From the NCBI GenBank assembly GCA_905236065.1, contig CAJONZ010000065.1, positions 12,285 to 76,284 of the forward strand: a DNA stretch of 64,000 bases. Direction: 5' to 3'. How positions within the stretch are numbered: position 1 is the first letter of the stretch; every line of letters starts with the position of its first letter. The translations under genes were made by a program, and so were the position numbers. Below, in pieces: positions 39,164 through 55,074 of the stretch. The notes below the pieces were generated by a model. That model did no database searches, had not been told where the DNA came from, and was given only the letters and a program-made list of their open reading frames with translations. Source of the stretch: an uncultured Bacteroidaceae bacterium. Its GTDB lineage: Bacteria > Bacteroidota > Bacteroidia > Bacteroidales > Bacteroidaceae.

Positions 39164-39202
39164 TCTAAATAGTCAAACGATTTAAAACCGTTAATCATGA
39201 AT

Positions 39203-39239
39203 GGGGATGCATCATCACCGATGCATCCCCTCTTTTGTT
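39203..39239 (+). terminator. Terminator after gap, convergent with the end of the NRPS block
   Basis: GGGGATGCAT (39203..39212) pairs perfectly with ATGCATCCCC (39221..39230), followed by TCTTTTGTT. Confidence 0.7.
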
Positions 39240-39280: not shown

Positions 39281-42200
39281 TTACACGGTAAAATAATCAA
39301 AGCCAACGATGGTGTGAACGAAACGACGGACGTAGTCGAACGCCGTGGGTGGCCATTGAAAGCCGAAACGGTAAAGAACCTGGGTGGTATAGTCATTGTC
39401 AGACTCAATCCAGCGCATGTCGTGGCTATTGCTGAGATTGTAGGCCATCAAGGGACGGAGGAGGGTAACAAGGTCGGGATTGGACATCATTTGTTCAAGA
39501 GCCTTCTGGAAATCCTCCTTCTCCACCCGAGGAAGCTTGATACCGGCAATGGCGAAACCCGTAAGGATGTCTGCCATATACTGACGGTGGACGTTGTAGG
39601 GATGAAAAACAGTACACTCACGAGGAGTGGTTGCGAGAAGCATGATGGCATGAGCCACCTCATCGACGGGCGAGAACTCGAATACCTGACTAAGCGCTTC
39701 GTAAGGCACCATGCCAATGATAACGTAGGCACGGAGCAGGGCCAAGAAATTGTTCGTGTTGAAATTAATCTGGAACTCGCCGTCCTTCTGGCGTGCAGAT
39801 AGGTTGCCAACGCGCATAATCTTGGCATTTAGGCCTTGGTTGGCGATGGCATCGAGGACTAACTCCTCTGCCTTGTATTTGGAATAGACATATTTATTCT
39901 CGTCAATGTTTTGGCCGAGCCAAAGGTCTTGCTCCGTGAGTTTGACATCAGGACCAGGGAAACCATCGACACTGAGACCGGCAATACTGGTTGTAGAGAT
40001 ATGGATAAGACGGGAACCTGTGCGCAAACAGAAAGTGATGAGATGGCGCACAGACTCGATGTTGACCATTTCGATGTCATTGCCGGCAGAGAAGTGCTTG
40101 ACATTAGCGACGCAGTTGACAACAGTCAATTGATTGTTGAGACTATCGAAGGCTTCGGGCTTGATAACCTCGGCAGCAAAGACTTGAACGCGATTATCGA
40201 AGTGACGGAAAGCTTCGGTCTTACCAAAATAGTAGAAGTACAAGGATTTGAGTCGGCTGAAAGTCTTTTCGTCGCTCTTTGCCCGGATAGGACAGAGGAT
40301 GCGGCACTCGTAATGCAATAGCAACTCATTGAGGATGTGCATACCGAGGTAACCTGTAGCGCCTGTAAGCAATACATCGCCAATGGGCTGACGCTCGCCA
40401 TTGCGGAAAGCATCAAGAGTATTGGCTGCCAGAACCTCCCTTACTCCACATGGAAGGGAAACGACTGTACCATCATTCGCAGCGGGCAGAACGGCGGCAG
40501 CTCCTTTCCCTTGAACCCTGTCCTTTTGGGAAAGGGATACAGATTGGGGCTGTAATTTCTCTTTTGCCAAAAAGACGGCGAGAGAACGGGGAGTCTTTTG
40601 GTTGAACAAGTCGTTAAAGACAATCTGCACACCATGCTTGCCGGCCTCCACAATTACTTTGATAGCATTGAGACTGGTGCCGCCAATCTCGAAGAAGTCG
40701 TCGAGGGCACCCACTTGCTCAATGCCGAGAACCTCAGCGAAGATGTTTGCAAAAAGCTGCTCCGTTTCGCCTTCGGGAGCGACGTATTCTGTGGCACGTT
40801 TCAATTCGGGCACAGGCAGCGCCTTGCGATTAATCTTGCCGTTGGGTGTCATGGGCATGGTTTCGAGACACATGTAGGCATCAGGCACCATGAACTCAGC
40901 CAATGACGATGCAGACAGAGCAGCACGAATAGAGTCCTCACTGAGAGAAAAGCCATCAGCCACAGTATAATAAAGTACGAGATGTTCGTTGCCCATAACC
41001 TTGCGAACTTCGGCTGCTGCCTGACGGATGCCGTCTATGTTCAGTGCCTTGCTCTCGATTTCGCCGAGTTCAATGCGGAAGCCACGCAATTTCACCTGGG
41101 TATCTATGCGCCCAAGGTACTCAATCTGTCCGTCGTCGTTCCAACGGCAAAGGTCGCCCGTGTGATACATCTGGACTGGGCGCCCCCAACGGTCAGCCTC
41201 AACGAAGGGACAATCGACAAACGACTTGGCCGTGCGTTCAGGCAGTCGCCAGTAACCCCATCCCACTTGTACTCCGGCAAAGCAGAGTTCACCAGCCACC
41301 CCCTGTGGCACAAGATGTCCTGCGGTATCGACGATGAAATTCCAGTTGTTGGCAACGCTTTGGCCAATGGGAATGTTTTCCACGCGGCATCCTGGAGCAA
41401 TCCTATAATAAGAAGTGTCGTCGGTACATTCGGTAGGCCCGTAAACGTTGATTATTTCGATGCGGTCGCTAAAAACACCGTCCATTTTCTCACCACCACC
41501 GGTAATAAAGCGGATGGGCAGGTCGTCGAAGGTGTTGAGCAACAAACAAGTCATGGCTGTCGAATAGCCACCACCAGTGATGCGGTGTTCAATGAGGAAC
41601 TGACGGATGGCATTAAGATCCTTGCGGATTTCCGTCGGCATGATATGGAACGAACCGCCAAGGGTGAGCACGGGATACATGTCCTCGATGTGGGCGTCGA
41701 ACGAGAACGAACGATGGCCACTGATGCGGTCTTCGGACGTCAAATGCTCCATATCGATGACCACGGCAATGAAATTCCTCAGACCAGCCTGATGGAGCAT
41801 GGCGCCTTTCGGCTTTCCTGTGGAACCACTGGTGTAAATCATGTAAGCGAGGCCGTCAGGCTTCGACAGGTCGATGGGGACGTCCGACGAAGAACCGTCG
41901 GAAACAGTACCCTCAGCCATGAAGTCATCAATGAAGAAAGTCTTGGCTAAAGCAGTATCAAAATTCCCTTCTGCTTTTTTTGCTTCAAGTACTTCATGCG
42001 TAGTAATCAAAACCTTCGACTCGGAGTTCTCCAACATATAACTCAGACGCTCATTGGGATATTCGAAGTCAAGAGGCGTATAAGCGGCGCCAGCTTTGTG
42101 GATGGCAAGGACGGAGAGTGGAAACTCTTTGGTGCGGTCAAGCATGACGCAGACGAAATCATCGGGCTTTACACCAAAGTCGATGAGCCGATGAGCCAGT

Positions 42201-43630
42201 GCATTAGCGTAACAATCCATTTCAGCGTAAGTCAGTTGACTGTCCTTATCCACGACGGCAGGGGTATCGGGAGTCCGTTGCACCTGTTCTGTAAAGAGGT
42301 TGGCGAAAGTCTTGCTCAGATCCACGTCAATATCCTTACCCTTACCTATATGATTGATAAGATGTGCCGCTTCGTTGTCACTGACGATACTGATACTATC
42401 AATAGCATCGTCAGCATGTGCCATCATCTGCTCCATCGTGGCCTTCATTGCATCGGCCATCATGCGCATGGTTTTTCGGCTGTTCATGGCCAGGCTCGAT
42501 TCCATGCGGATGTCATAATTATCGCCCACTATGAATCTATGAGCCAGCATGTCGTAGAATACGTCGCCACGATCCTGCTGCACGAACTTACAGTGCGTAT
42601 CACCAAAGTGGTATTCCTCTTCCCAGCCGGGCAGAGCCGTAAAATTAAACGAGATTCCAGGCTGCACACCTAAGTCACGGCAGAAGTGAGAGAAGGGATA
42701 GGCCAATTGCGACAACGTGGCCTTCATTTCTGTATGGACTATAGCGATATACTCGCGCACGCTCTGCTCCTTCCGAATCTCCATCATAAAAGGAATCGTA
42801 CGCACGAACATGCCGTAAGCCTGCTTCACACGCGGATCACGACGACCATGAAAGATGGTCGTGTAGGCCACCTTCTCCTCGCGCAATAGTCGGGCAAGCA
42901 CATAGCTAAACGCTGCCTGGAATATCTGATACGGAGCAAAGCCATTTTCCTTGCACCAGTCATCCACCATTACCCGGTTGATGTAAGCAGACTCCTGCCC
43001 CATCTCGCCCACAGGATTCTCGGGCCGTACCGACAGCGTCGCCAAATCTACTCCCGCATATTTCTCTTGCATCACCGCCTTCGCCTGCTCATATTCCTTA
43101 TTGCCTAAGCAAGCAGACTCATCCTCGGCAGCCTCCAGCATTCCGTATTCCTGTACGGGAAGCGGTTTACCCTCGTATGCCAATGGCAGGTCTCGCTGTG
43201 GGAACAAGGTCAAGTAGCTTGTCCCATCGGTGACCATGTGATGAATATCGACCAACAGGTAACGCTTTTCAGGGGTGGTCACGAGCTCCACACGTATCAA
43301 CGGCTCGTCGCCCATGATATCGAATGGTCTGCAAAAGGCATGGTGGGCATAGTCTTGGAAGTCTGTCTCTGTCATCTCACGACGAACGATGGTAAGACGC
43401 TTTGTCTCATCCACATACTGCCGTGGTTCACCTTTTTCATCGATAAGGAAGCGCAAACTCAGTTCCTTGCGGGCGGCAAAAACGGTCTGCAAAGCAGCGT
43501 CCAAGCGGTTGAGGTCTATCTCGTCGTTCAATGGTACGATGCAGGGGACATTGTACTGCATGACGTGAGGAAACTTCAGACAATCGTAAAATACGCCAAG
43601 CTGAGATTGAAGCAAAGGAAAAGTAACCAT
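39281..43630 (-). CDS. Nonribosomal peptide synthetase, single module C-A-T-R
   Basis: 1449 aa.
- C domain: about nt 42326..43630, HHMVTDG at 43223..43243.
- A domain: about nt 40811..42310 (YTSGSTGKPKG, NVYGPTE, YHTGDL, GRIDTQVKLRGFRIELGEIE, NGKINRK).
- T domain: about nt 40565..40774, GGTS Ser codon at 40673..40675.
- R domain: about nt 39284..40384, TGATGYLG at 40343..40366 and YVYSK.
Motif coordinates were verified by back-translation. Confidence 0.9.
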   Translation of the reverse strand: MVTFPLLQSQLGVFYDCLKFPHVMQYNVPCIVPLNDEIDLNRLDAALQTVFAARKELSLRFLIDEKGEPRQYVDETKRLTIVRREMTETDFQDYAHHAFCRPFDIMGDEPLIRVELVTTPEKRYLLVDIHHMVTDGTSYLTLFPQRDLPLAYEGKPLPVQEYGMLEAAEDESACLGNKEYEQAKAVMQEKYAGVDLATLSVRPENPVGEMGQESAYINRVMVDDWCKENGFAPYQIFQAAFSYVLARLLREEKVAYTTIFHGRRDPRVKQAYGMFVRTIPFMMEIRKEQSVREYIAIVHTEMKATLSQLAYPFSHFCRDLGVQPGISFNFTALPGWEEEYHFGDTHCKFVQQDRGDVFYDMLAHRFIVGDNYDIRMESSLAMNSRKTMRMMADAMKATMEQMMAHADDAIDSISIVSDNEAAHLINHIGKGKDIDVDLSKTFANLFTEQVQRTPDTPAVVDKDSQLTYAEMDCYANALAHRLIDFGVKPDDFVCVMLDRTKEFPLSVLAIHKAGAAYTPLDFEYPNERLSYMLENSESKVLITTHEVLEAKKAEGNFDTALAKTFFIDDFMAEGTVSDGSSSDVPIDLSKPDGLAYMIYTSGSTGKPKGAMLHQAGLRNFIAVVIDMEHLTSEDRISGHRSFSFDAHIEDMYPVLTLGGSFHIMPTEIRKDLNAIRQFLIEHRITGGGYSTAMTCLLLNTFDDLPIRFITGGGEKMDGVFSDRIEIINVYGPTECTDDTSYYRIAPGCRVENIPIGQSVANNWNFIVDTAGHLVPQGVAGELCFAGVQVGWGYWRLPERTAKSFVDCPFVEADRWGRPVQMYHTGDLCRWNDDGQIEYLGRIDTQVKLRGFRIELGEIESKALNIDGIRQAAAEVRKVMGNEHLVLYYTVADGFSLSEDSIRAALSASSLAEFMVPDAYMCLETMPMTPNGKINRKALPVPELKRATEYVAPEGETEQLFANIFAEVLGIEQVGALDDFFEIGGTSLNAIKVIVEAGKHGVQIVFNDLFNQKTPRSLAVFLAKEKLQPQSVSLSQKDRVQGKGAAAVLPAANDGTVVSLPCGVREVLAANTLDAFRNGERQPIGDVLLTGATGYLGMHILNELLLHYECRILCPIRAKSDEKTFSRLKSLYFYYFGKTEAFRHFDNRVQVFAAEVIKPEAFDSLNNQLTVVNCVANVKHFSAGNDIEMVNIESVRHLITFCLRTGSRLIHISTTSIAGLSVDGFPGPDVKLTEQDLWLGQNIDENKYVYSKYKAEELVLDAIANQGLNAKIMRVGNLSARQKDGEFQINFNTNNFLALLRAYVIIGMVPYEALSQVFEFSPVDEVAHAIMLLATTPRECTVFHPYNVHRQYMADILTGFAIAGIKLPRVEKEDFQKALEQMMSNPDLVTLLRPLMAYNLSNSHDMRWIESDNDYTTQVLYRFGFQWPPTAFDYVRRFVHTIVGFDYFTV

Positions 43631-43651: not shown

Positions 43652-46600
43652 TTATTCAAAGAAACCAAATCCACCAATCGCTTTCAGCATACGCTCCACA
43701 TAGTCCCAAGAGGTGGGTGAAAATGCAAAGCCAAGGCGATAAAGCACCTGCGTGGTATAGTCATTATCCCTATCCACATCGGTTGTCTTCTGTCCGTGAG
43801 CCATATCCTGATAGGCTAAAAGCGAAGCCAACTGGCGTGCTTTCTGCGGATTGTCCTTAGCGGCTTCCATCGCTTGGGCAAATTCTTCCTGTTCTACGAA
43901 CTGAATGCCATTACCCACAGTGGAAAGCCCCATGAGCACATCGCCTAGGAACTGGCTGTGAATGTTGTAGGGATGGAAGACCGTGCAGTTGGATGGCGTG
44001 GTGGCCAAAAGCACGATGGAATGGCTCACCTCATTGATGGGCGAGAACTCCACCCGCTTGTTGCGCATTGCGTATGGGCAACAACCCAGCATGTTGTAAA
44101 CCCGGATGCGCCCCATGAATGAATTGGTAGAGAAGTTGGCCTGGAACTCACCGTCGGAGGAACGGGCTGCAAGATTGCCCACACGCATAATCTTGGCTTT
44201 CAGTCCGTGATTGATAATCGCATCAAGGATGAGTCGCTCGGCCATGAACTTTGAGTAAATGTACTTGTTTCCAAGATATTGCCCCATGTATAGCCGCTGT
44301 TCGGTGAAGACTGGAGATTGGAGAGTGGCTGCACATGAATTCATCTTCGATTTTCCATCTTCAATCCACAGGCCGCGCGTACTGGCCGTAGAGATATGGA
44401 CAAGCGTGGCACCTGTCTTGATACAGAAATCCACACAGCGCTGTGCGCCGCCAATGTTCACATCCTCTATCTCCGTACCCTCAGAAAAGTGCTTGACAAT
44501 CGCAGCACAATTAAAGACCGTGGATAACGGATAGTCGATATCTGCCAACTTCTCCGTCAGGTCTTCGGTCACGTCACCAAGGATGACGTGGATGCGAGTA
44601 CCAAAAAGGGACTTGAAGGAGTCGGCAAAGTAGTAGAAGAGGAGGGTGCGCAGACGGCTCTCGGCCTTTTCCTTTGTCTTGCCACGCACCAGACAGTAGA
44701 TATGCTCTGCATCGGAATTGATCAATTCGTGCAGAATGTGAATACCCAGATATCCCGTGGCACCCGTCAGGAGCACATTACCTAACTTGCGGAGCTCACC
44801 TTTACGGAAGTTGTCGAGCGTATTCTGTTGGAGAAGGTCGTTAATGGCAGTATAGTCGAAGTCCTTCTCCGAAGGAACTGCGGACGTGGAAGACTCAGAG
44901 GGTACAGACTCGCCAGTGATGAGTTGGGCAAGCTGACGTGGAGTCGGATTGGCAAAGACATCGCCGTAGGCCACATGCAGTCCGGCTTTGTCGGCTTCAA
45001 TGATGACACGGGTTACGACCAACGAGGTACCACCCAACTCAAAGAAGTTGTCGGTAGCCCCTACCCTTTCCATCTGCAAGATGTCGGCAAAGATGTCACA
45101 GAAAGCCCGTTCGGTATCATTGCCCGGAGCCACGTATGCCGATGTGACGGCCAATTGCGGTTCGGGCAAAGCCTTCACGTCTGTCTTGCCGTTGGGGGTC
45201 ATAGGCATTTCCTTCAATTGCAAATAAGCCGTTGGCACCATGTACTGTGTCAGACTCTTGGAGATTTCAGCCTTCAATGCGTCCGGCGCAATCTCACGGT
45301 CGGCTGTGTAATAGGCACAGAGATGTTCCTTACCACCCAGTTTGCGGATGAGAATCACCACTTTCTTCATGCCTTCCACCTTCAGCATCACATTCTCTAT
45401 TTCACCCAATTCGATACGCAGGCCACGAAGTTTAATCTGATGGTCGGTACGTCCGAGTATCATGACATCTCCATCTGGCAACCACTTCGCATAGTCGCCT
45501 GACTTATAGACACGCACACCATGATAATCCACAAAGCGTTCACGGGTCATCTGGTCAAGATTATTGTAGCCACGAGCCACGCCACGGCCACCAATGTACA
45601 ATTCACCTACCACTCCTGCAGGCAACTCGTTGCCGTCGCTGTCAACCACAAACTCCTTCACGTTGAGCTGGGGCTTGCCCACAGTAACCAACTTCGCATG
45701 GGTCAGTTCCTTGTTGTTCGAGGCCACGGTAATCTCCGTCGGACCATAGCAATTGAAGATGCGGGCCTGGGTGACACTGCGCATTTTTTCCAACAGGCTT
45801 TCGCTGAACTTCTCACCACCAGCACGACATATCTTGACCTGGGAGATGGCATTGCAGAAGTCATCACTGGTGAGCCACGTCTGCCAACGGGAAGGCGTAC
45901 CCGACACCATGTTGATATGCTGTTCTTGAATGAGATGGGCCAGGTCAATCGGGTTGTTGGCTTGTTCCTCTGTAGCTACGATGAGCGTCTTGCCATTAAA
46001 ATAGGCCATACCAATGTCCTGCAAAGCTGCATCAAACGAAATGGTGGTTACGCTGAGTATGCGGTCGGCATCGGTCAGCACCCCATGGGCAAAAACGTTG
46101 GCCGGATGCCCATAGAGATAGTTGCAAATACCTTCGTGACGCAACATCACACCTTTCGGACGTCCTGTGGAGCCACTGGTATAGATTAAGTATGCGAGGT
46201 CATCGGGGGTCAGGTTCACAGAGGGTTCTGAGGACGTAGAAGAAGAAGCCAGGAGGTCTTCGACGTTGAGTACTTTCTCAGCATCGAAACCAGTGGCCTT
46301 CTCCGAGTTCTCTGTAGTGATAATATAACGTGCCTCGCTATCCTCCAAGATGAGTTTGACACGGTCTGCCGGGTATTCCGGGTCACAAGGAATATAGGCA
46401 GCCCCCGCCTTCAGCACACCGAAGAGTGCCAGGATGAGGCGGCTAGTACGCGGCAGGAGCAGGGCCACCCGGTCGCACTCCTTCACACCACGCTGATGCA
46501 GGGCGGCAGCGATGCGGTCGGTCAGTTCATCCATTTCCTGATAGGTGTATCGACCATCAATGGCCACAAGTGCCTCATGATTGGGCTGTATCTTGGCAAA

Positions 46601-49600
46601 ATGGCCGATACATTCATGGAAGAACTTGAAAGGTGCCTCACCCGTGGCCGTCTGGCGCAGGCGAGACAATTCCTCTTCCTGCTGCTTGCTTACGATAGAA
46701 AGCTGACGCACCTTGCCCTCCGGCTGTGCCATCATCCGATGGGCCACAGCCACAATACTCTCGGCCAGCGATTGTGCCAACCGTTTCGAGTACAGGGCAT
46801 CGTCGTATTGTACGACTACTCCACAAGACTCTATCTTAATGTTAATCTTGAACTTCGGTACGTTTAGTTCCAGTAATTCTTGACCTATAGGTTTCCCACC
46901 TACGGTATATTCCGACAGGACACCCACCTGATAAGCGTATGCGATGGCAGGACGGAAACCATAGTCGGAGGCAATGCGTGCAAAGGGATAGTCCTCGTGG
47001 CGCAGGGTCTCATCAAAAGTTTCACTGGTCTTCTGCAAGAACGCCCCAACCGTCACGTCCTCTACATTCAGGCCCAGGGCCAGTGTATTGACGAACATGC
47101 CCACCGTATCGGCTATCTTCAGGTTCGAGCGCCCACTGCTGACGGTGCAAAGATACACCTCGCGGTTGTTGACATAACGCGACACCACGTAGGCTGTGGC
47201 GGCAAGGAACAAGTGGGCAGGCGTTATCTCATGCTGACGGCAGAAAGCCGTAGCCTGTTCATAGTCGGGCAGACAGACTGCCTCGCCAATAAATCCCTGT
47301 TGCTCGCTTTTGGGAAGGTCTGCAGGAATCTCGCTGGCTCCTTCACACGTTTGCAACATTTCGGCAAAGAACTGCTGCGAGGCACGGAATGCTTCCCCTT
47401 CTTCAGCCCGCCGCTGGTCGGTCACGAAATCGAGGTAAGTATAGCTTTCTTTCTCCAGGGAACGGCCTTCCAGCAAATCACCAATCTGACGAATGAGCAA
47501 GTCGGCAGAACCACCGTCGAAAACCAGATGATGAACATCCATCAGCAAATGTACGCTGCACTCTGTCTTTACGACTTCAAAGCGGTAAAGTGGTGGTTGA
47601 TGCAAATTGAAGGGACGCACAAACTCGTTCTTGTAGGAGGACAATTCCTCATCCTTCATCTCCGTAACAGGTACCTCCACAGCCGTGTCGAGGGCCACCT
47701 TCTGCACGATGCCGTCGCCCTGTGTCGTGAAATACACACGCAACTCAGGATGAGCCTCCACTACACGTTTCACGGCATCAACCAGCTTGCTGGCATCCGT
47801 ACCGTCTGGATAGGACAAGAGATAAGGAATATTGTATATCGTAGAGGTAGGATTCTTCAAGCAGTCGAAATACACTCCCGTCTGAGCGTAGGAAAGCGGC
47901 GCCTCCTCTACGCTGTCCGAAGAGTCTTGACGGCTTTGTTCTTTCTTTTCCTTGATAGAGCCAAAGGAACCATCCATCATCTTTTTCAGAATTTCGTTTT
48001 CGATGCTTTGCAACGTTCCCGTCTTTACAAACGTCTTTGAATCCAGCGCCACGCCATAGCGCTTATTCACCTGCACAGCTAACTTAATGGCAGAGATGGA
48101 GGTAAGTCCGACGTAGCCCAGGACGGTCGTAATGCCGAAATCCGTGTTGCCGACAATGGCGGCGACCATGTCCTTCAGTTCCTGCTCCAACACATTCAGC
48201 GGGGCGGCAAATTCTTCACGATTCTCTCTCCCCTTCTCACTTCTTACAGGCTTCGGCAGTGCCCGCTTATTTACCTTTTGGTTCTGGTTCAGGGGGATGG
48301 CCTCAATCTGCATGGTCACGGCAGGCACCATGTAGGGCGGTTTCCTGTCAAGAATAAATTGATTGAGTTCTTCGACGTCTATCTGCTTGTCGCTGACGAT
48401 ATAGGCAGCGATGAACTTTCCGCCATTCTCCTCATCAAATGCCTGCACCGTGGCATCCTTGATGTCCGGGAACTCACGGATGACACTCTCCACTTCCTTC
48501 AGTTCGATGCGGAAGCCACGAATCTTCACCTGTCCGTCACGACGACCCACAAACTGGATGTTCCCGTCGGGCAGATAGCGCACGATGTCACCAGAACGAT
48601 AGACACGACGGTATTTTTCATTCTCCGTAAACGGATTGGTGATATACACCTCTGCCGTCTTCTCTGGACGGTTCAGATAGCCACGGCTCACCTGCGGGCC
48701 ACTAATCCAAAGTTCACCTGCTGCACCCACGGGCTGACGATGGCCCTGCGGGTCAACCACATACAGACGCATGTTGTCAAGCGGCTTGCCAATAGGAATT
48801 TCTTTCATCTTCTCCTTGACGAGGTAGGTCGTCGTAAAGATGGTACACTCCGTCGGGCCATAGCCATTGTAGAAGTTGTATTCCTTGGGAGGTGTCAGCG
48901 AAGCCAGCTTCTCACCGCCCGTGGAGAGGTGCAACAGCGAATGGTTCTCAATGCCAGTGGCAAACTGGTAAGCCACCTGCGTCGTCATGAACGAATGAGT
49001 AATACCGTTTTGCTCAAAATAATCGTTCAGAGCCACCAAGTCGAGGCGCAACTCCTCGGGAACGATGTAAAGCGTGGCACCAGACGTAAGGGCAGGATAC
49101 ATGTCCATCATACAGGCATCAAAGCCATAGCTGGCGTATGCAGCGACCCGATGCTCAGGTCTCAGGTCATAGCGACGCTGATACCAGTGGCAGAAAGCCA
49201 CCAGGTTTCCATGCGTCAGCTGACAGCCCTTCGGCACCCCTGTCGAACCAGAAGTGTAGAGAAGGATGAAAAGATTCTCCGGCTTCGGTTCCGTAGGTTG
49301 CTGTGCCACGGCAACACAACCTTCAATATCCTTCGTCAGCAAGACCTCCCCCTTGTACTCATCCACGATGGGGCGCAGTTCTTCATCCGCAATCAACAGT
49401 TTTGCTCCTGCATCCTGCATCATAAAGTTCAGGCGCTCTTTCGGATAGGTAGGGTCAAGCGGTTGGTAGGCACAACCGGCCTTGAGCACTCCGAGCGACG
49501 CAATGGCCATCCACTCACAGCGGGGAATAAGTACCGAAACTACGTCTTCGGCTCCAAGCCCCTTACCGGCAATGTAGCTTGCGATGCGGTCACTAAGGTC

Positions 49601-50992
49601 GTCCACGTCGGCGTATGTATAATGCCTATCCTTATAGACCACGGCTACGTTCTGAGCTGTAGCCTTGGCTTGGCGGCGGAACAACGAAACGATGGTCTGT
49701 GTATCGTCGTAAGGAACATCCGTCTGGTTAAACGCATCGAGTTTCTCCACCTGCGACGCCGTGGAAAGCTCCACATCACGCAAATATTCCTGGGTGAGGA
49801 AATCGTTCAGCACGGCCTCGTAACTCTCCAGGAACTGTTCAATCAGGTGTTGGGAATACTCATTGCTGTTGTATTCTGCCTTTACATGATATTTGCCACC
49901 CAAGATGAAAGTTTTGATATAAAGCGAGGCGGCCAGCGTACTGTTACAAAGGCGCACGGTCTTCATCGGTTTTCCGCACAGTTGTTCCTGGGAAAACAGA
50001 ATGCCGTGCCAAGCAAACATGGAATTGCTTTGCAGGCCAAGGTCGTTGACGACATCGCTGAAAGAATATACTTCATGTTTCCGGCAACCGCTCATCTGCT
50101 CTTGCCCCGCCTTCAGAAAGTCAATCACTTTCGTGTCACTATCGAACTTGGCATAGACGGGCAGCGTCTTCACGGTCATTCCGACGGAATGGAGGAAACG
50201 CTTGTCTGAACGTCCATTGTAAACCGTCGTGAAAAGCGACTCCTGCTCGTTATTGTATTTTGCAAGCAGATAGGCGTATGCCATTGTGAAGAAATTGCTC
50301 TTGAAAACGCCTTTCTCCTTGCAAAACGCTTCCACCTGCTCCATTGCGACATGCAACGTGCGTAGCATACTGTCCTCCGCGTGTTCTTCAATCTCCAAGT
50401 CGGGCATCAGTTGTGTGAACGTATCGCCACAGTCAAAGTTCTGGGCATACCATGCCTTGCCCTCGTCGAAAGCCTCCGTCTTGCGCAGTTCTGCCTCTGT
50501 CAGGGCTACCTCAGCCATCGTAAGGGACTCTGGGGAAAGAGTCTCACCACGATAAGCGGCATCCACGTCAGCCAGTATCACTTTCAGCGTCGTACCGTCA
50601 GCAATGATGTGGTGGGGATCCAGAAAGAAATAGAAATGTTCCTTGTCACGCAGCAGACGAATATGAAACAGGCGGTCGCCATAGATATTGAAAGGGACTA
50701 TCAGCTGCTGTTTCACTTTCTCTATGTCGTCTATCTCCTCCACTGCCAATGTAAACGTCTCGGTGTCGTCAATCGTCTGCATGGGTTCACCCTCGTCGTT
50801 CAGTTCAATTCTCGTAAACAACGTGGGATGAGCCTGAACGGCAGTTTCAATAGCCATTCGCAGCCGTTCCGCATCAAGACTTCCGTCCAATATATATAAA
50901 TAAGGTACATTATAACAAGGTTCCCCTGCATGTGCTACACACTCTACATAGAGACCATATTGCGATTTTGATAAAGGTGTTGCCGTCTTCAT
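43652..50992 (-). CDS. Nonribosomal peptide synthetase, two modules C-A-T-C-A-T-R
   Basis: 2446 aa.
- C1: about nt 49703..50992, HHIIADG at 50594..50614.
- A1: about nt 48248..49687 (YTSGSTGVPKG, NGYGPTE).
- T1: about nt 47978..48190, atypical GLTSIS with Ser codon at 48098..48100.
- C2: about nt 46628..47905, HHLVFDG at 47513..47533.
- A2: about nt 45158..46621 (YTSGSTGRPKG, NCYGPTE, NGKTDVK).
- T2: about nt 44909..45121, GGTS Ser codon at 45023..45025.
- R: nt 43655..44785, TGATGYLG at 44744..44767 and YIYSK. Confidence 0.9.
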   Translation of the reverse strand: MKTATPLSKSQYGLYVECVAHAGEPCYNVPYLYILDGSLDAERLRMAIETAVQAHPTLFTRIELNDEGEPMQTIDDTETFTLAVEEIDDIEKVKQQLIVPFNIYGDRLFHIRLLRDKEHFYFFLDPHHIIADGTTLKVILADVDAAYRGETLSPESLTMAEVALTEAELRKTEAFDEGKAWYAQNFDCGDTFTQLMPDLEIEEHAEDSMLRTLHVAMEQVEAFCKEKGVFKSNFFTMAYAYLLAKYNNEQESLFTTVYNGRSDKRFLHSVGMTVKTLPVYAKFDSDTKVIDFLKAGQEQMSGCRKHEVYSFSDVVNDLGLQSNSMFAWHGILFSQEQLCGKPMKTVRLCNSTLAASLYIKTFILGGKYHVKAEYNSNEYSQHLIEQFLESYEAVLNDFLTQEYLRDVELSTASQVEKLDAFNQTDVPYDDTQTIVSLFRRQAKATAQNVAVVYKDRHYTYADVDDLSDRIASYIAGKGLGAEDVVSVLIPRCEWMAIASLGVLKAGCAYQPLDPTYPKERLNFMMQDAGAKLLIADEELRPIVDEYKGEVLLTKDIEGCVAVAQQPTEPKPENLFILLYTSGSTGVPKGCQLTHGNLVAFCHWYQRRYDLRPEHRVAAYASYGFDACMMDMYPALTSGATLYIVPEELRLDLVALNDYFEQNGITHSFMTTQVAYQFATGIENHSLLHLSTGGEKLASLTPPKEYNFYNGYGPTECTIFTTTYLVKEKMKEIPIGKPLDNMRLYVVDPQGHRQPVGAAGELWISGPQVSRGYLNRPEKTAEVYITNPFTENEKYRRVYRSGDIVRYLPDGNIQFVGRRDGQVKIRGFRIELKEVESVIREFPDIKDATVQAFDEENGGKFIAAYIVSDKQIDVEELNQFILDRKPPYMVPAVTMQIEAIPLNQNQKVNKRALPKPVRSEKGRENREEFAAPLNVLEQELKDMVAAIVGNTDFGITTVLGYVGLTSISAIKLAVQVNKRYGVALDSKTFVKTGTLQSIENEILKKMMDGSFGSIKEKKEQSRQDSSDSVEEAPLSYAQTGVYFDCLKNPTSTIYNIPYLLSYPDGTDASKLVDAVKRVVEAHPELRVYFTTQGDGIVQKVALDTAVEVPVTEMKDEELSSYKNEFVRPFNLHQPPLYRFEVVKTECSVHLLMDVHHLVFDGGSADLLIRQIGDLLEGRSLEKESYTYLDFVTDQRRAEEGEAFRASQQFFAEMLQTCEGASEIPADLPKSEQQGFIGEAVCLPDYEQATAFCRQHEITPAHLFLAATAYVVSRYVNNREVYLCTVSSGRSNLKIADTVGMFVNTLALGLNVEDVTVGAFLQKTSETFDETLRHEDYPFARIASDYGFRPAIAYAYQVGVLSEYTVGGKPIGQELLELNVPKFKINIKIESCGVVVQYDDALYSKRLAQSLAESIVAVAHRMMAQPEGKVRQLSIVSKQQEEELSRLRQTATGEAPFKFFHECIGHFAKIQPNHEALVAIDGRYTYQEMDELTDRIAAALHQRGVKECDRVALLLPRTSRLILALFGVLKAGAAYIPCDPEYPADRVKLILEDSEARYIITTENSEKATGFDAEKVLNVEDLLASSSTSSEPSVNLTPDDLAYLIYTSGSTGRPKGVMLRHEGICNYLYGHPANVFAHGVLTDADRILSVTTISFDAALQDIGMAYFNGKTLIVATEEQANNPIDLAHLIQEQHINMVSGTPSRWQTWLTSDDFCNAISQVKICRAGGEKFSESLLEKMRSVTQARIFNCYGPTEITVASNNKELTHAKLVTVGKPQLNVKEFVVDSDGNELPAGVVGELYIGGRGVARGYNNLDQMTRERFVDYHGVRVYKSGDYAKWLPDGDVMILGRTDHQIKLRGLRIELGEIENVMLKVEGMKKVVILIRKLGGKEHLCAYYTADREIAPDALKAEISKSLTQYMVPTAYLQLKEMPMTPNGKTDVKALPEPQLAVTSAYVAPGNDTERAFCDIFADILQMERVGATDNFFELGGTSLVVTRVIIEADKAGLHVAYGDVFANPTPRQLAQLITGESVPSESSTSAVPSEKDFDYTAINDLLQQNTLDNFRKGELRKLGNVLLTGATGYLGIHILHELINSDAEHIYCLVRGKTKEKAESRLRTLLFYYFADSFKSLFGTRIHVILGDVTEDLTEKLADIDYPLSTVFNCAAIVKHFSEGTEIEDVNIGGAQRCVDFCIKTGATLVHISTASTRGLWIEDGKSKMNSCAATLQSPVFTEQRLYMGQYLGNKYIYSKFMAERLILDAIINHGLKAKIMRVGNLAARSSDGEFQANFSTNSFMGRIRVYNMLGCCPYAMRNKRVEFSPINEVSHSIVLLATTPSNCTVFHPYNIHSQFLGDVLMGLSTVGNGIQFVEQEEFAQAMEAAKDNPQKARQLASLLAYQDMAHGQKTTDVDRDNDYTTQVLYRLGFAFSPTSWDYVERMLKAIGGFGFFE

Positions 50993-51051: not shown

Positions 51052-52428
51052 TTACCATTTCGTTGAAAAGATTTTAGGAGAGAAGTTCACAGAGAACCAT
51101 CCCCATCGAAGGTTACCGTCACCACGATCACGTTTCAGTCTTTCCATGGATTCGGAACCTGTCATATAAGTGAAACCCGCCGAGAAACTAACCAGGTCTT
51201 GCAGTTTATAAGATGCCGTCACCTCTATCTCATGGCCAAGCGTCATGTCCATGTCTTCAAGTTTCGTTGCCATGGCCAGATAATGGTAGGCCACACCGAT
51301 ATGCAGATTCTTGACAGGCTTGACGAAAGCACCGACAAAGGCATTCTGCAAACCCGGAGAGAAAGTATTGACGAAATTGCTGAGGTAGAAAAAGTCCATG
51401 GCACCATAGAACTTATGCTGAGAACCATAGACTGGCAGGAAATATTTTATTTTTTCATGCTTGGGCATTCCTAACGTTCCCGGTTTGGGCACAGGCATGT
51501 AGTCGTCACCACTCAGGTAGTCAAAACCCACTTGGAAACCAAACATGTCCCGGGGGGTCCAGGTAGCCAGGCCGCTGGCCATCCAAGCATCAATTTCAGC
51601 CCCTTCCTCGTTCCGGCCCATCTGCCGATAGTAGGAACCCTCTACCGACCAACGCTTGGGACGGAAGGAAATATATCCACCCACCACCTGCTGGTATTCT
51701 ATATGGGGAGCATAATCATTCTTTCCGCCTTCATAGCCCGCTTGCATACCCACATTCATTCCAAGCAACGACACACCCAGAGGCACCTTGGGCACATCGT
51801 AGTGATACCAAAGCGTATGCATCGTCTTGTAAGGCTGCACCCCGTTTTCCTTATTATAATAGGTACCGCCATCGACATTATTCGAATTTTGGTTATAGGC
51901 CAGAATGGCGTGAGCCTTATGGCCATGTCCCTCATAGCCCAGTTTGAACACATCGTGCGCAAGGGCGGTCATGGCCCAGTCGTTGGGGCCAATGATGCGC
52001 TCGTCGTCGTAGGCCAGAGCCTGACGACCCATTTGCATGAAAAGGCCCGTCTTGTCCGAAAGCTTTGCCCAAGCCTCAGAAAGGCTGAGGGCATTGTTTC
52101 CTTTCATGCCCCAGACACCCAAACTCTGTGCCACGACTTTGGCCTCCACGGCAAAACGGTTCAACGGTTTCTCCGCCGAAGCGAAATTCTTCCGAAAGTC
52201 CACGGTCAATCGTGCACGGTTCATCAAGAACTTAGCCTCGTTCTCCTTTTCCGAATCCCCATCACCTTCCCTGATCATTCCGCCGTTCCGAAGCTCACCG
52301 TGAGTCAGCATTTGCAAACCAATGTCAAATTGGTTTTCCTTATCTGCCTGCTGTCCCCACGCCGTAATTGGTAAAAGCAATACAACGGCCAAGCAACAGG
52401 GACGTATAAAAAACCTGTTGTGTTTCAT
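51052..52428 (-). CDS. Alginate-export (AlgE-like) family outer-membrane beta-barrel
   Basis: 458 aa with a signal peptide (LLLPITAWGQQ). MGRQALAYDDERIIGPNDWAMTALAHDVFKL resembles the GRQ...RliG..dW...r.fDg signature of the alginate-export family. Amphipathic strands throughout; aromatic C-terminus STKW. Confidence 0.6.
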   Translation of the reverse strand: MKHNRFFIRPCCLAVVLLLPITAWGQQADKENQFDIGLQMLTHGELRNGGMIREGDGDSEKENEAKFLMNRARLTVDFRKNFASAEKPLNRFAVEAKVVAQSLGVWGMKGNNALSLSEAWAKLSDKTGLFMQMGRQALAYDDERIIGPNDWAMTALAHDVFKLGYEGHGHKAHAILAYNQNSNNVDGGTYYNKENGVQPYKTMHTLWYHYDVPKVPLGVSLLGMNVGMQAGYEGGKNDYAPHIEYQQVVGGYISFRPKRWSVEGSYYRQMGRNEEGAEIDAWMASGLATWTPRDMFGFQVGFDYLSGDDYMPVPKPGTLGMPKHEKIKYFLPVYGSQHKFYGAMDFFYLSNFVNTFSPGLQNAFVGAFVKPVKNLHIGVAYHYLAMATKLEDMDMTLGHEIEVTASYKLQDLVSFSAGFTYMTGSESMERLKRDRGDGNLRWGWFSVNFSPKIFSTKW

Positions 52429-52456: not shown

Positions 52457-52759
52457 CTATTCAAAATCAAACAGACTAATAAATCCTGTCAGTTTGAACA
52501 CGTCCTTGATGTCATCGTTCAGGTTGCGCATCACCACCCGGCTGCCTCCAGCCTTGGCACCCTTCATAATGCTGATTAAAATACGCAAACCGTTAGAAGC
52601 AATGTATTCCAGCTTCTCACAGTCAATAATGACATCCTTACCATCGGTCTTGTAAAGAGGCTGTAAAGTCTTCTCTGCCTCCAAAGCAGCCACCGTGTCC
52701 ATTTCTCCCTCAAGGCTGACAAAAAATTTGCCTTCTCTTTCTTCAATCGTTGTTTTCAT
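52457..52759 (-). CDS. STAS-domain anti-sigma-factor antagonist-like protein (RsbV/SpoIIAA type)
   Basis: 100 aa. VIIDCEKLEYIASNGLRILISI carries the conserved phosphorylatable Ser context (SNGL). Confidence 0.8.
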   Translation of the reverse strand: MKTTIEEREGKFFVSLEGEMDTVAALEAEKTLQPLYKTDGKDVIIDCEKLEYIASNGLRILISIMKGAKAGGSRVVMRNLNDDIKDVFKLTGFISLFDFE

Positions 52760-52869: not shown

Positions 52870-55074
52870 TCATTCTCCAATCCTCTTCCTCAACGTCAAT
52901 ATATTCTTACCATCCACCCGCTCATAATTGATGCTGTCCATCAAATTCCTGACAAGGTGAATGCCTAATCCTCCTATCGGTCTCTCTTCCACAGACAATG
53001 TAGTATCTACCTGAAGCGCCTTCGTCGGGTCGAAAGGCACACCCGAATCAACAATGATAAACTTCAGCCAATGCCTGTCAGACTTGGCAAAGAGGGTGAT
53101 ACTGCCTTCCACTCCGATGGGATAGGCATAGTTCATCACATTGACCACAGCCTCTTCCACTGCCAATCGGACATTGCCCGCCAACTTTGCCTCCATATCC
53201 AGTTGAGTGGTCACATCCTTGATAAAGGTGTTCAACTGCTCTATCTTACGCAGGTCGTTCGTCAACGTCAGCGTCTCCGACAGCACATCCTGCTCCGTTT
53301 CCGGCGAGTAGAGTATGGCCAGCATGGTCAAGTCGTCACTTTGCTCTGCGTTTTCCACAAACGAATCCACAGCACCAGTCATCGTCTGCAACAGAAGATG
53401 AGGACGATTTTCAGGACTGCATGGCTGTAGCACCCCCTTGACCCTTTCCTCTCCAAACTGCTTATGCTGAAGATTCTTTGCCTCCGTCAGTCCGTCGGTG
53501 TATAAAAACAGCAGTGAGCCTGGCCGAAGCATGTATTCTTGCGCCTCATATTTCACATCCTCAAAGATGCCGACAGGCAGGTTGGGCTTTGCATCCAACA
53601 CTTCAGCCGTTCCCTTGCCCTGGGACATCCAGTCGCGGACAATCAACGGACGGTCATGACCGGCATTGCAATAGCGCAGTCGTCCCGTAGGCAAGTCGAG
53701 CACACCTAAGAAGAGCGTGACAAACATATTCGACTCGTTGCCATGACAGGAAGTCGCATTGATATCCTGCATCATGCGGGCAGGATTGTTTTCATGGGCC
53801 GAGGCAGAACGGAACAAAGAATGCGTTACCGCCATCAGCATGGCCGACGGAACACCTTTGCCACTCACGTCGCCGATGCAGAAAAACAGTTTCTCGTCGC
53901 GCAGGAAGAAGTCGAAAAGGTCGCCACCTACCTCACGGGCAGGCACCAACGAACCGGCCACACCGACGTCGCTCCGCATGATACTGTTCTCCCGTGGCAA
54001 CATCTGCGTCTGGATATCCTTTGCAATGCGTAGTTCGCTGCTAATCCGCTCCTGCTCCATCTCCGTCTCCTGCAACCGGCGCTGACTCCGTGCAAACAAC
54101 TGGATAATGAAGCCTAACACCACAAGGCCCGCCAAGGCCATCAACATGATATTGCCCCGCATCTGGTCCAGCTTGCCGAACGCTTCGTCGTCATAGCACA
54201 CGACCACCATCAGCCAACGGGGACTCTTCTTCTTCACAGCATAATACACATGGCCCGCATCCCCTCTCTCATCAACGAACGGAAAGCCTGTCACACGCCC
54301 ATTAACCCTTTCCTCCTTCACCACCGTGCTGTCATTCACCATGTTGACAATCTGCTGAACCAACTGCGGACTGGCCAAACTGTCTGCCGGACCGGCAATC
54401 AACTCGCCCGAATCTCCCATGACCAACGTGAAGGAAGAAGGGTAACGATGGTTCATGTTCACCACCTCGCCAATCCAGTCAATGTCGAGGTCAACAGCCA
54501 GCACGGCCACGGGCGTACCGCTTTCATCCTTTATGGGCATAGCATACGTGGTGACGACAGTCTGTGCGCCCTCTGCATCCAAATAGGCCGGCGACCAGTT
54601 GGTGATTTCGCCTTTCATGGCCAACTGATAGGGAAGCATTTGTGTATAGTCGTGCTTCTCTGAACCGATTTGCACCAAACAGGCATCATCCTCCGTCTGA
54701 CGGGCGTAGGGTTCATAAAGCCGCCCTTTCAATGGGTAATAATAAGGTTTGAAAGCAAGGGCAGCCCCGATGATGTTGTCGTGCTCATCCTTCACCATGT
54801 TGTAAAGCAACTGGTTCAAGTGTTCAGGGTCATCCAAGTTGGCCTCCACATGCCACTGTTGGTTACAGACAGCCACTTCTGCCATCGACATGATTTCCTG
54901 GATGCGAAGCGCCGAGGTAACCAACTCGAAAAAAGCACTCTTTTCCAGTTCCCTCTCCATCAGCTCCCGCGTATATTGGTAGCGGACGAGAGAGATAACC
55001 TCCAACAGCACAGCTGCCAGGATGACGATAACGAGCATGGCTCGTTTCCTTAACCACTCGAAAAGCTTTTTCAT
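52870..55074 (-). CDS. Membrane sensor: Cache-like extracytoplasmic domain, PP2C (SpoIIE/RsbU) phosphatase and RsbW-like HATPase kinase, fused
   Basis: 734 aa. Two TM helices flank a domain of about 270 aa with Cache-like features. PP2C motifs FCIGDVSGKGVPSAMLMA, LFLYTDGLTEA and SDDLTMLAI. The C-terminal 130 aa carry AVEEAVVNVMNYAY (N box), IVDSGVPFDP and IGGLGIHLVRNLMD (G boxes). A CAAAGGTA -7 box lies at 55095. Confidence 0.8.
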   Translation of the reverse strand: MKKLFEWLRKRAMLVIVILAAVLLEVISLVRYQYTRELMERELEKSAFFELVTSALRIQEIMSMAEVAVCNQQWHVEANLDDPEHLNQLLYNMVKDEHDNIIGAALAFKPYYYPLKGRLYEPYARQTEDDACLVQIGSEKHDYTQMLPYQLAMKGEITNWSPAYLDAEGAQTVVTTYAMPIKDESGTPVAVLAVDLDIDWIGEVVNMNHRYPSSFTLVMGDSGELIAGPADSLASPQLVQQIVNMVNDSTVVKEERVNGRVTGFPFVDERGDAGHVYYAVKKKSPRWLMVVVCYDDEAFGKLDQMRGNIMLMALAGLVVLGFIIQLFARSQRRLQETEMEQERISSELRIAKDIQTQMLPRENSIMRSDVGVAGSLVPAREVGGDLFDFFLRDEKLFFCIGDVSGKGVPSAMLMAVTHSLFRSASAHENNPARMMQDINATSCHGNESNMFVTLFLGVLDLPTGRLRYCNAGHDRPLIVRDWMSQGKGTAEVLDAKPNLPVGIFEDVKYEAQEYMLRPGSLLFLYTDGLTEAKNLQHKQFGEERVKGVLQPCSPENRPHLLLQTMTGAVDSFVENAEQSDDLTMLAILYSPETEQDVLSETLTLTNDLRKIEQLNTFIKDVTTQLDMEAKLAGNVRLAVEEAVVNVMNYAYPIGVEGSITLFAKSDRHWLKFIIVDSGVPFDPTKALQVDTTLSVEERPIGGLGIHLVRNLMDSINYERVDGKNILTLRKRIGE

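Follow-up and report, generated by a model that had tools for sequence, protein, structure and literature searches.

The closest described systems to the locus analysed here are small, reductase-ended nonribosomal peptide synthetases (NRPSs) of gut and rumen microorganisms. Guo et al. (2017, Cell 168:517) reportedly described a gut-microbiome family of dipeptide-aldehyde NRPSs, and ruminopeptin from the rup pathway of Ruminococcus bromii is said to be N-acylated (Schneider and Balskus, 2018). Some members of this family of gut anaerobes carry an N-terminal condensation (C) domain and yield N-acyl dipeptide aldehydes, for which a protease-inhibitor function is presumed. Ruminopeptin was presented as a dipeptide aldehyde from an NRPS cluster of R. 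bromii (PMC12327764), and the gut NRPS products include aldehydes to which an N-acyl tail lends stability (PMC8210680). AusA, the aureusimine synthetase of S. aureus (NF047350), is a two-module enzyme with the order A-T-C-A-T-R (A, adenylation; T, carrier; R, thioester reductase) and an aldehyde-forming R domain, and since it has no N-terminal C domain, the dipeptide aldehyde that it releases is free and cyclises to a pyrazinone. In the archaeon Methanobrevibacter ruminantium M1, mru0068 consists of two C-A-T modules, with a C domain at the N-terminus, and genes for serine phosphatases, for an anti-sigma-factor antagonist and for a MatE pump stand around it, a layout already described in 2010 (PMC2812497), and structures of the PCP-R portion of Mru_0351 from the same organism are available (6VTJ and 6VTZ; PMC8024701).

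The locus studied here lies in a stretch of 64,000 nucleotides (64 kb; hereafter the window). The host would be a rumen Prevotellaceae bacterium (cattle rumen, Prevotella-type), and the synthetase gene, designated NRPS1, would be chromosomal. The features to which the analysis refers are as follows, in the direction of reading of the minus strand:

52870..55074, minus strand: membrane sensor, 734 aa, with two transmembrane segments, a Cache-like domain, a PP2C (SpoIIE) phosphatase and an RsbW-like HATPase_c_2 kinase (PF22673, PF02743, PF07228, PF13581)
52457..52759, minus strand: STAS anti-sigma-factor antagonist, 100 aa (TIGR00377, 69 bits in comparison to a cutoff of 53)
51052..52428, minus strand: outer-membrane beta-barrel, Alginate_exp-like, 458 aa (PF13372, 34.3 bits in comparison to a cutoff of 25.2)
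43652..50992, minus strand: NRPS1, 2446 aa, one unbroken open reading frame, C-A-T-C-A-T-R by Pfam domain order
49703..50992, minus strand: C1 condensation domain of NRPS1, aa 1-430, HHIIADG at 50594..50614
48248..49687, minus strand: A1 adenylation domain, aa ~436-915, matched by TIGR01733 and AMP-binding, code DAMFSGGIFK
47978..48205, minus strand: T1 carrier domain, GLTSIS, codon of Ser965 at 48098..48100, second PP-binding stretch
46667..47908, minus strand: C2 condensation domain, elongation, best Pfam Condensation stretch at aa 1029-1442, HHLVFDG at 47513..47533
45158..46621, minus strand: A2 adenylation domain, aa ~1458-1945, AMP-binding at 1466-1809, code DAQSRGCVAK with Arg at position 299
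44918..45106, minus strand: T2 carrier domain, PP-binding at aa 1963-2025, GGTSL, codon of Ser1990 at 45023..45025
43655..44776, minus strand: terminal R thioester reductase domain, aa ~2073-2446, TGATGYLG at 44744..44767 and YIYSK at 44249..44263
39281..43630, minus strand: NRPS2, 1449 aa, C-A-T-R by Pfam, with HHMVTDG, GGTSL, TGATG and YVYSK, code DAEGTGVDDK

A preliminary description of NRPS1 had proposed a bimodular, reductase-ended NRPS, and the order C-A-T-C-A-T-R was upheld by both the open reading frame and the Pfam domains. The Pfam search placed two Condensation domains (E 6e-111), two AMP-binding domains (E 1.9e-164) and two PP-binding domains in the protein and ended it with NAD_binding_4 (E 5e-35, 121 bits); TIGR01733 matched two stretches with 775.7 bits in comparison to a cutoff of 317.4, and YTSGSTG, a core motif of A domains, was found twice. 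These E-values and the open frame of 7.3 kb are far beyond chance. The nucleotide coordinates given earlier for HHIIADG, HHLVFDG, both carrier serines and TGATGYLG were identical to the recomputed values, which correspond to residues 127-133 for HHIIADG, 1154-1160 for HHLVFDG and 2076-2083 for TGATGYLG, with YIYSK at 2244-2248. The catalytic residues, which had been described as intact, were all present in NRPS1 and were kept in at least 70 of 72 aligned sequences, i.e., H127, H128 and D132 of C1 in 71, the HHxxxDG of C2 in 71, Ser965 in 71, Ser1990 in all 72, and the Tyr and the Lys of the R domain in 70 each. Among solved structures, the best match of C2 was the C domain of TycC (100 bits).

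The reading we favour, and regard as reasonably probable, is that NRPS1 is a functional two-module NRPS, that it makes an N-acyl dipeptide aldehyde for export, and that production of this aldehyde is controlled by the sensor and STAS proteins. C1 would take an acyl group from primary metabolism, supplied as acyl-CoA or acyl-ACP, and transfer it to a hydrophobic residue held by T1, C2 would couple the N-acyl residue to the residue held by T2, and the R domain would free the N-acyl dipeptide as a C-terminal aldehyde with NAD(P)H, the N-cap preventing cyclisation to a pyrazinone. Export would proceed via the co-transcribed outer-membrane barrel, and in most relatives also via a MATE pump, and production would be linked to the membrane Cache-PP2C/kinase sensor and its STAS partner acting as a partner-switching module. 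As peptide aldehydes, such products would likely be reversible covalent protease inhibitors, in which the C-terminal (P1) residue sets the target class.

AusA was the best-scoring curated model for NRPS1, and both enzymes have two modules and a terminal R domain; however, NRPS1 has an extra N-terminal C domain and scored 1144.6 bits in comparison to the NF047350 cutoff of 2500, and is thus outside the AusA equivalog. A relative of NRPS1 was encoded by 378 GTDB species representatives, and the best 80 of the 378 were nearly all from rumen Prevotellaceae/Bacteroidales metagenome-assembled genomes (MAGs). The identity to NRPS1 ranged from 49% to 80% over 70 orthologues (the outlier L063, with a wrong open reading frame, was set aside), and the exact NRPS1 protein was present on four metagenome contigs. 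Relatives with one, two, three and four modules exist, and the domain order of NRPS1 recurs in a 2409-aa protein from a Clostridia MAG, with a T1 motif of GL(T/S)S. As a reductase-ended synthetase in the range of one to three modules with gut and rumen MAG hosts, NRPS1 resembles the family of Guo et al. and of ruminopeptin in architecture and host, the characterised clusters being compared through their descriptions; the branch to which NRPS1 belongs differs from them in its Gram-negative hosts (rumen Prevotellaceae and Muribaculaceae), in its barrel gene and in pocket codes (with Arg299 in A2) that have no literature match. NRPS1 is thus an uncharacterised new member of a widespread gut and rumen synthetase family, which it extends to Gram-negative hosts, with no new principle involved. 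A literature search found no Prevotella NRPS product or peptide aldehyde.

Regarding the mode of release, the best solved match of the R domain was 6VTJ, the Mru_0351 PCP-R of M. ruminantium (237 bits), followed by AusA-R (4F6C, 107.6 bits), MxaA-R (58.4 bits) and Mtb-R (32.7 bits). Since the nearest relatives, among curated models and solved structures alike, are synthetases with reductive release, the N-capped dipeptide aldehyde proposed in the preliminary description is a reasonable prediction from the architecture, from AusA and from the Mru_0351 and AusA-R relatives, with the qualification that the choice between aldehyde and alcohol, i.e., between two- and four-electron reduction, cannot be predicted from an R-domain sequence (PMC8024701). 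The leading alternative is that the R domain performs a four-electron reduction and that the product is an N-acyl dipeptide alcohol rather than a reactive aldehyde. R domains of the same fold, Mtb-R and MxaA-R, make alcohols, with no sequence rule separating the two outcomes (PMC8024701), and MxaA-R is itself a significant match to the R domain of NRPS1 at 58 bits; on the other hand, the closest R domain of known product is the aldehyde-forming AusA-R, whose score is far above those of the two alcohol-forming domains, and related gut synthetases were reported to yield aldehydes (PMC8210680, PMC12327764), so that we consider release as an alcohol unlikely and retain the aldehyde as the predicted product. 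The analogy to pyrazinones that had been drawn earlier would not carry over to an N-capped product of NRPS1, because an N-cap blocks cyclisation and the analogy is thereby confined to uncapped members of the family.

The prediction of an N-cap depends on C1, which had been called a starter-type domain. The term holds for its position: C1 begins at about residue 5 of NRPS1, no carrier domain lies ahead of it, and its active site is intact, and in N-terminal place and intact HHxxxDG it is like the C1 of SrfA-A, the C1 of CDA-PS1 and the Cs of RzmA. The term does not hold for its sequence, which is nearer to LCL-like elongation C domains. A profile built from 32 C1 sequences and scored on C domains of solved structure gave 126 bits for the elongation C domain of TycC, 109 for bacitracin synthase 3 (BacC) and 78.9 for LgrA, in comparison to 65 for SrfA-A, 28.8 for RzmA Cs and 27.4 for CDA-C1, and the expected grouping of C1 with starter (lipo-initiation) C domains was thus not borne out by the profile scores. 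When 1.8 billion representatives were scanned, the stretch best matching C1 was often an internal C domain of related synthetases, and C1 is about 25% identical to C2 as well as to the C domain of NRPS2. A further difference from the lipo-initiation systems is that no acyl-ligase or ACP gene was found within the NRPS1 cassette. The likeness to elongation domains and the lack of an acyl-activating gene close by, together with the existence of four-module relatives (P0012 and P0073) that have no C domain at the N-terminus, would be in line with a vestigial or non-acylating C1, in which case a free dipeptide aldehyde would cyclise to a dihydropyrazinone or pyrazinone as in AusA. Yet HHxxxDG and 53 further positions of C1 were invariant over 32 sequences of only 57% to 76% identity, which argues that C1 is in use and would be unlikely in a dead domain, and N-terminal C domains are usually associated with N-acylated peptides (PMC2812497); a C1 without acylating function is accordingly judged very unlikely, and N-acylation by C1 is kept in the favoured reading.

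The unusual motif GLTSIS of T1, noted earlier in place of GG(H/D)SL, is real, but it is a hallmark of the family rather than a peculiarity of NRPS1. Of the 72 aligned sequences, 71 have G-L-T-S-I at T1; GL(T/S)S(I/V/L) also occurred in distant relatives including the Clostridia MAG protein, and GL(T/S)S in those of Muribaculaceae.

The substrate pockets were extracted with the FDxx, GGE, YGPTE and GK motifs as anchors, and this procedure reproduced the codes that had been aligned by hand, DAMFSGGIFK for A1 and DAQSRGCVAK for A2. The distance from D235 to position 278 is 43 residues in both A domains, matching the numbering of PheA, and there is thus no indel ahead of position 278; both domains keep Asp235 and Lys517 and hence each would activate an alpha-amino acid. 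The A1 code was DAMFSG[VG]IFK in 39 of 71 orthologues, and the A2 code was unchanged in 44 of 71 and read DAHSRGTVSK in 10 more. This repetition of the codes across orthologues argues for defined substrates. A literal full-text literature search with five pocket codes found no paper. By the chemistry of the pocket alone, A1 would be expected to take a hydrophobic residue, and since the A2 pocket is polar with Arg299, our best guess for its substrate is a polar or acidic residue such as Glu or Asp. The conserved features of the pockets (Arg299 in NRPS1 and the three acidic residues of NRPS2) yield clear substrate hypotheses.

Upstream of NRPS1, on the same strand, stand the genes for the sensor, the STAS protein and the barrel. 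The barrel gene stops 59 bp upstream of NRPS1 and its protein has a signal peptide and the C-terminus ...FSTKW, and the STAS protein holds a Ser within ...IASNGL.... The sensor gene was kept in 61 of 81 loci with strand and order unchanged, the STAS gene was beside NRPS1 in 70, phosphatase and STAS were both kept in 61, and an orthologue of the barrel was present in 54; a separate clustering of open reading frames placed the barrel directly upstream of NRPS1 in 53 loci with a median gap of about 40 bp. The full set of sensor, STAS, barrel and NRPS on one strand was found in 52 of 81 loci even though the housekeeping flanks vary, and the control of production could be approached through this conserved sensor/STAS module. 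The neighbourhood recalls mru0068, with which it has in common the rumen habitat and the phosphatase and antagonist genes, and NRPS1 orthologous loci also share the MatE gene. It differs in that the host of mru0068 and mru0351 is an archaeon and that of NRPS1 belongs to Bacteroidota, in that the M. ruminantium clusters have no outer-membrane barrel, in that phosphatase and kinase are fused in one Cache sensor protein in the NRPS1 cassette, and in that a second synthetase replaces the MatE gene in the window.

The NRPS1 gene is followed immediately by a MATE gene in 60 of 80 orthologous loci, and a PPTase gene stands after MATE, beside the cluster, in 15 loci. No MATE gene is next to NRPS1 in this genome, and the sole MATE gene that the window contains (7712..9127) is 35 kb away and shows 21% identity. 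A tblastn search with the ACPS gene of the NRPS1 family found no PPTase in the 64-kb window, and the PPTase serving NRPS1 may be encoded elsewhere in the same genome. NRPS2 shares the strand of NRPS1, begins 21 bp downstream of it and occupies the exact position of the MATE gene in the locus of a sister species (L023), and in this lineage only it would appear to stand in place of the MATE gene. It adjoins NRPS1 in this genome and in none of 80 other loci, and it represents a widespread family in its own right, with orthologues that occur alone or by other synthetases; NRPS2 was thus rejected as a conserved partner of NRPS1. Its code with three acidic residues was invariant in 110 of 111 relatives, and to judge from the chemistry of this acidic pocket, its product is probably an N-acyl basic amino-aldehyde that is made independently. 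MxcG, the myxochelin synthetase (NF038078), is likewise a single-module C-A-T-R enzyme, and the model covers almost all of NRPS2 (residues 4-1347); however, the score was 369 bits in comparison to a cutoff of 2300, and no aryl-acid activation genes are near NRPS2. That NRPS1 and NRPS2 form one pathway, e.g., with the released aldehydes or amines condensing or with one enzyme feeding the N-terminal C domain of the other, would fit the short distance between the genes on one strand, the 47% identity between their R domains and the complementary charges of their pockets (Arg299 in A2 of NRPS1 and three acids in NRPS2), but is improbable given their separate occurrence, a release domain in each enzyme and the MATE gene at the position of NRPS2 in the sister locus, which together point to a cassette swap rather than a co-evolved pair. 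The cassette, the missing MATE gene and the neighbouring NRPS2 were not among the points of the preliminary description.

A wider and rather doubtful proposal, made here tentatively, is that dominant rumen Prevotellaceae secrete N-acyl peptide aldehydes from combinatorial reductase-ended synthetases, that a charged P1 residue picks the protease class (acidic with the Arg299 pocket of NRPS1, basic with the three-acid pocket of NRPS2), that control is by partner switching and involves no transcription factor, and that the MATE gene was traded for a second warhead. If this is true, the molecules of NRPS1 and NRPS2 could directly regulate rumen proteolysis and competition among microbes. Prevotellaceae belong to the most abundant bacteria of the rumen. 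Should the products be peptide aldehydes that inhibit proteases, they could affect how ruminants break down protein and use nitrogen. In a survey of steers, Prevotella NRPS clusters were expressed more highly in less feed-efficient animals (PMC8241843).

The Rfam scan of the whole 64-kb window returned no RNA family. Promoters of Bacteroidota depart from the sigma-70 consensus. The flanking genes for GAPDH, sigma-70, Tex, SmpB and the C10 and C11 proteases were considered as members of the cluster and rejected, as they are not conserved beside NRPS1. A recent foreign insertion of the cluster was likewise rejected, as its GC content of 0.50 to 0.52 is like that of the remainder of the window.

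NRPS1, the synthetase under study, belongs to a known class of gut and rumen synthetases that end in a reductase, and is a typical and highly conserved example. The gene occupies an uninterrupted minus-strand frame of 2446 codons (43652..50992), and its Pfam matches (Condensation twice, AMP-binding twice with AMP-binding_C, PP-binding twice, and NAD_binding_4; best E-value 1.9e-164) give the domain sequence C-A-T-C-A-T-R, that is, two modules of condensation, adenylation and carrier domains (C1, A1, T1 and C2, A2, T2) followed by a terminal reductase (R). The motifs were recomputed as follows:

50594..50614 (-), HHIIADG, residues 127-133
48098..48100 (-), T1 carrier Ser, residue 965
47513..47533 (-), HHLVFDG, residues 1154-1160
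45023..45025 (-), T2 carrier Ser, residue 1990
44744..44767 (-), TGATGYLG, residues 2076-2083
44249..44263 (-), YIYSK, residues 2244-2248

Every motif coordinate in the preliminary description was identical on recomputation, and the pocket codes, DAMFSGGIFK for A1 and DAQSRGCVAK for A2, were the same when the ten residues were re-extracted with the FDxx, GGE, YGPTE and GK motifs as anchors; the 235-to-278 distance in the A domains is 43 residues, equal to that of PheA numbering. The original observation on NRPS1 is confirmed.

For the orthologues, 72 full-length sequences were aligned, namely the window protein and one per locus from 71 loci. At L063 the wrong ORF had been picked (19% identical); it was the single outlier in most columns and was left out of the code counts, and the other 70 were 49% to 80% identical to the window protein. 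Each catalytic feature (HHxxxDG in C1 and in C2, the carrier Ser in T1 and in T2, the Rossmann motif, and Tyr and Lys in R) was retained by 70 or more of the 72 sequences, which bears out the claim of intact catalytic motifs. The GLTSIS of T1, previously listed as unusual, is indeed present but is not peculiar to NRPS1: G-L-T-S-I was found in 71 of the 72 sequences, and remoter proteins of the same length (about 30% identity in C1), including a Clostridia MAG protein and proteins of Sodaliphilus and Muribaculaceae, carry GL(T/S)S(I/V/L) in T1 and GGTSL in T2, so that the motif is a family signature. The A2 code was unchanged in 44 of 71 orthologues and read DAHSRGTVSK in another 10, the kept features of the pocket being Arg299, Gln/His239 and Ser278, while DAMFSG[V/G]IFK was the A1 code in 39 of 71.

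C1 is N-terminal and keeps its catalytic motif; beyond this, another 53 positions do not vary among 32 sequences whose mutual identity is only 57% to 76%. The domain is very probably in use. A profile built from these 32 sequences was scored against solved C-domain structures, and the elongation domains of TycC (126 bits), bacitracin synthase 3 (109 bits) and LgrA (78.9 bits) all scored above the starter domains of SrfA-A (65 bits), RzmA Cs (28.8 bits) and CDA C1 (27.4 bits); C1 is thus not recognisable as a domain of the lipo-initiation type. TycC was also the top solved match for C2 and for the C domain of NRPS2, the synthetase downstream, and the three domains share about 25% identity in each pair. 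When 1.8 billion representatives were scanned exhaustively, the best match to C1 within many related synthetases was an internal C domain (for example residues 1016-1450 in a protein of 3486 aa and residues 1041-1470 in one of 2453 aa), and in the Clostridia relative both C domains resembled C1 about equally (second, 220 bits; first, 181 bits). From the profile scores and the internal matches, the term "starter-type", as first applied to C1, therefore holds for its position but is without clade support.

[quoted passage not shown] It was followed by AusA-R (107.6 bits), MxaA-R (58 bits) and Mtb-R (33 bits). AusA-R is, to our knowledge, the sole aldehyde-forming NRPS R-domain structure, and among curated NCBIfam models AusA also matched full-length NRPS1 best (1144.6 bits, far under the 2500-bit equivalog cutoff). 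In the less likely alternative, alcohol release, R would act like MxaA-R and Mtb-R, which are alcohol-forming (PMC8024701) and score lower. An aldehyde is the better guess, and a guess only, because how R domains stop reduction at the aldehyde is not understood (PMC8024701).

Judged by sequence, each of the two NRPS1 modules activates an alpha-amino acid, both C domains and the R domain are competent, and both carrier serines are present. In the most likely mechanism, C1 would N-acylate a hydrophobic first residue, the donor probably being an acyl-CoA or acyl-ACP of primary metabolism, C2 would form the peptide bond to a polar or acidic second residue, and R would set free an N-acyl dipeptide aldehyde. 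The N-cap would stop pyrazinone formation and keep the aldehyde stable (PMC8210680); if C1 were silent, the product would form a pyrazinone, a reading to be set against the intact motif and invariant positions of C1. The nearest characterised analogue in logic to this capped aldehyde is ruminopeptin of R. bromii. Ruminopeptin is reportedly (work of Schneider and Balskus, 2018) N-acylated with a Glu-type P1 residue. It is a dipeptide aldehyde (PMC12327764).

Three genes lie upstream of NRPS1 on the same strand with short gaps between:

52870..55074 (-), membrane sensor with two TM segments, a Cache-like domain, a PP2C/SpoIIE phosphatase and an RsbW-like HATPase_c_2 kinase
52457..52759 (-), STAS anti-sigma-factor antagonist, TIGR00377 over cutoff
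51052..52428 (-), Alginate_exp-like outer-membrane barrel with signal peptide and C-terminal aromatic residue

Of 81 loci, 61 had the phosphatase next to NRPS1, 70 the STAS gene and 54 the barrel; 52 had the full set, usually in the same order and always on the same strand; housekeeping flanks were not conserved, nor was any sigma factor near the cassette across loci. When every flanking ORF was clustered without bias, a MATE exporter (about 443 aa) emerged as the immediate downstream neighbour of NRPS1 at 60 of 80 loci, followed by an ACPS-type PPTase in 15 (examples of these two genes: L002:17272-18600, L023:17341-18666, L004:17178-17513); neither was found within the 64-kb window. Output may be governed by the sensor/STAS pair, a putative partner-switching module, and the product may leave via the barrel, plus MATE in the relatives. 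The cluster type is already known from mru0068 of M. ruminantium, where a serine phosphatase, an anti-sigma-factor antagonist and MatE surround an NRPS (Leahy et al. 2010; PMC2812497). Both clusters combine phosphatase and antagonist with a two-module NRPS having an N-terminal C domain, with MatE in the NRPS1 relatives, whereas the barrel is a Gram-negative addition. The window also encodes three proteases, none conserved beside NRPS1:

15214..18240 (-), C10 cysteine protease with Spi-inhibitor prodomain
34079..35404 (-), C11 (clostripain-family) protease
3719..5854 (-), M6 metalloprotease

The exact NRPS1 protein occurs in four metagenome-derived contigs, and a protein search gave hundreds of full-length relatives at 78% to 81% identity, the named ones being Prevotella MAG proteins. 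With one genome per GTDB species, a relative was encoded in 378 species, the best 80 being nearly all rumen or ruminant-gut MAGs (cattle, yak, goat, sheep, buffalo, deer) labelled Prevotella, Prevotellaceae, Bacteroidales or Muribaculaceae. Elsewhere the window looks like any Bacteroidota chromosome (GyrA, LepA, PBP1, FabD, GAPDH, Tex, SmpB), and the GC content of the cluster is not unusual. Our literature search found no product described from any Prevotella NRPS and no paper containing the NRPS1 or NRPS2 pocket codes. In a rumen survey with thousands of NRPS clusters, those of Prevotella were more expressed in inefficient steers (PMC8241843).

A gap of 21 bp separates NRPS1 from the second synthetase, downstream:

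39281..43630 (-), NRPS2, 1449 aa, C-A-T-R

Its motifs (HHMVTDG, GGTSL, TGATG, YVYSK) are intact, and it is 36% identical to module 2 plus R of NRPS1, the R domains alone sharing 47%. A joint product of the two enzymes would fit their adjacency but is unlikely: NRPS2 stands beside NRPS1 in the window genome only (0 of 80 other loci), and its widespread relatives (76% to 82% identity, Prevotella and Muribaculaceae MAGs) occur alone or adjoining other synthetases. The sister locus L023 has SmpB and GAPDH flanks in common with the window (GAPDH 98.8% identical) and carries its MATE gene at the exact place of NRPS2, and the exporter has therefore been exchanged for a second synthetase in the window lineage. 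The NRPS2 pocket code DAEGTGVDDK (residues within 40837..41698, minus strand) recurs unchanged in 110 of 111 relatives and is also the A2 code of two NRPS1 orthologues; with its three acidic residues and this constancy, it suggests a basic substrate (Arg, Lys or Orn). The value of NRPS1 lies in its abundance, its clear substrate predictions and the local MATE-to-NRPS2 swap, with no new mechanism demonstrated.

The wider family is combinatorial: members that begin with a C domain have one, two or three modules (three: P0011, P0105), those with four modules (P0012, P0073) lack this domain, and closely related modules recur among these reductase-terminated synthetases, two or three of which stand in tandem at some loci (L082:1-8615). 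The NRPS2 and GAPDH genes converge on a gap of 117 bp, which holds a G+C-rich inverted repeat (GGGGATGCATC...GATGCATCCCC, about 39200..39235), probably a bidirectional terminator.
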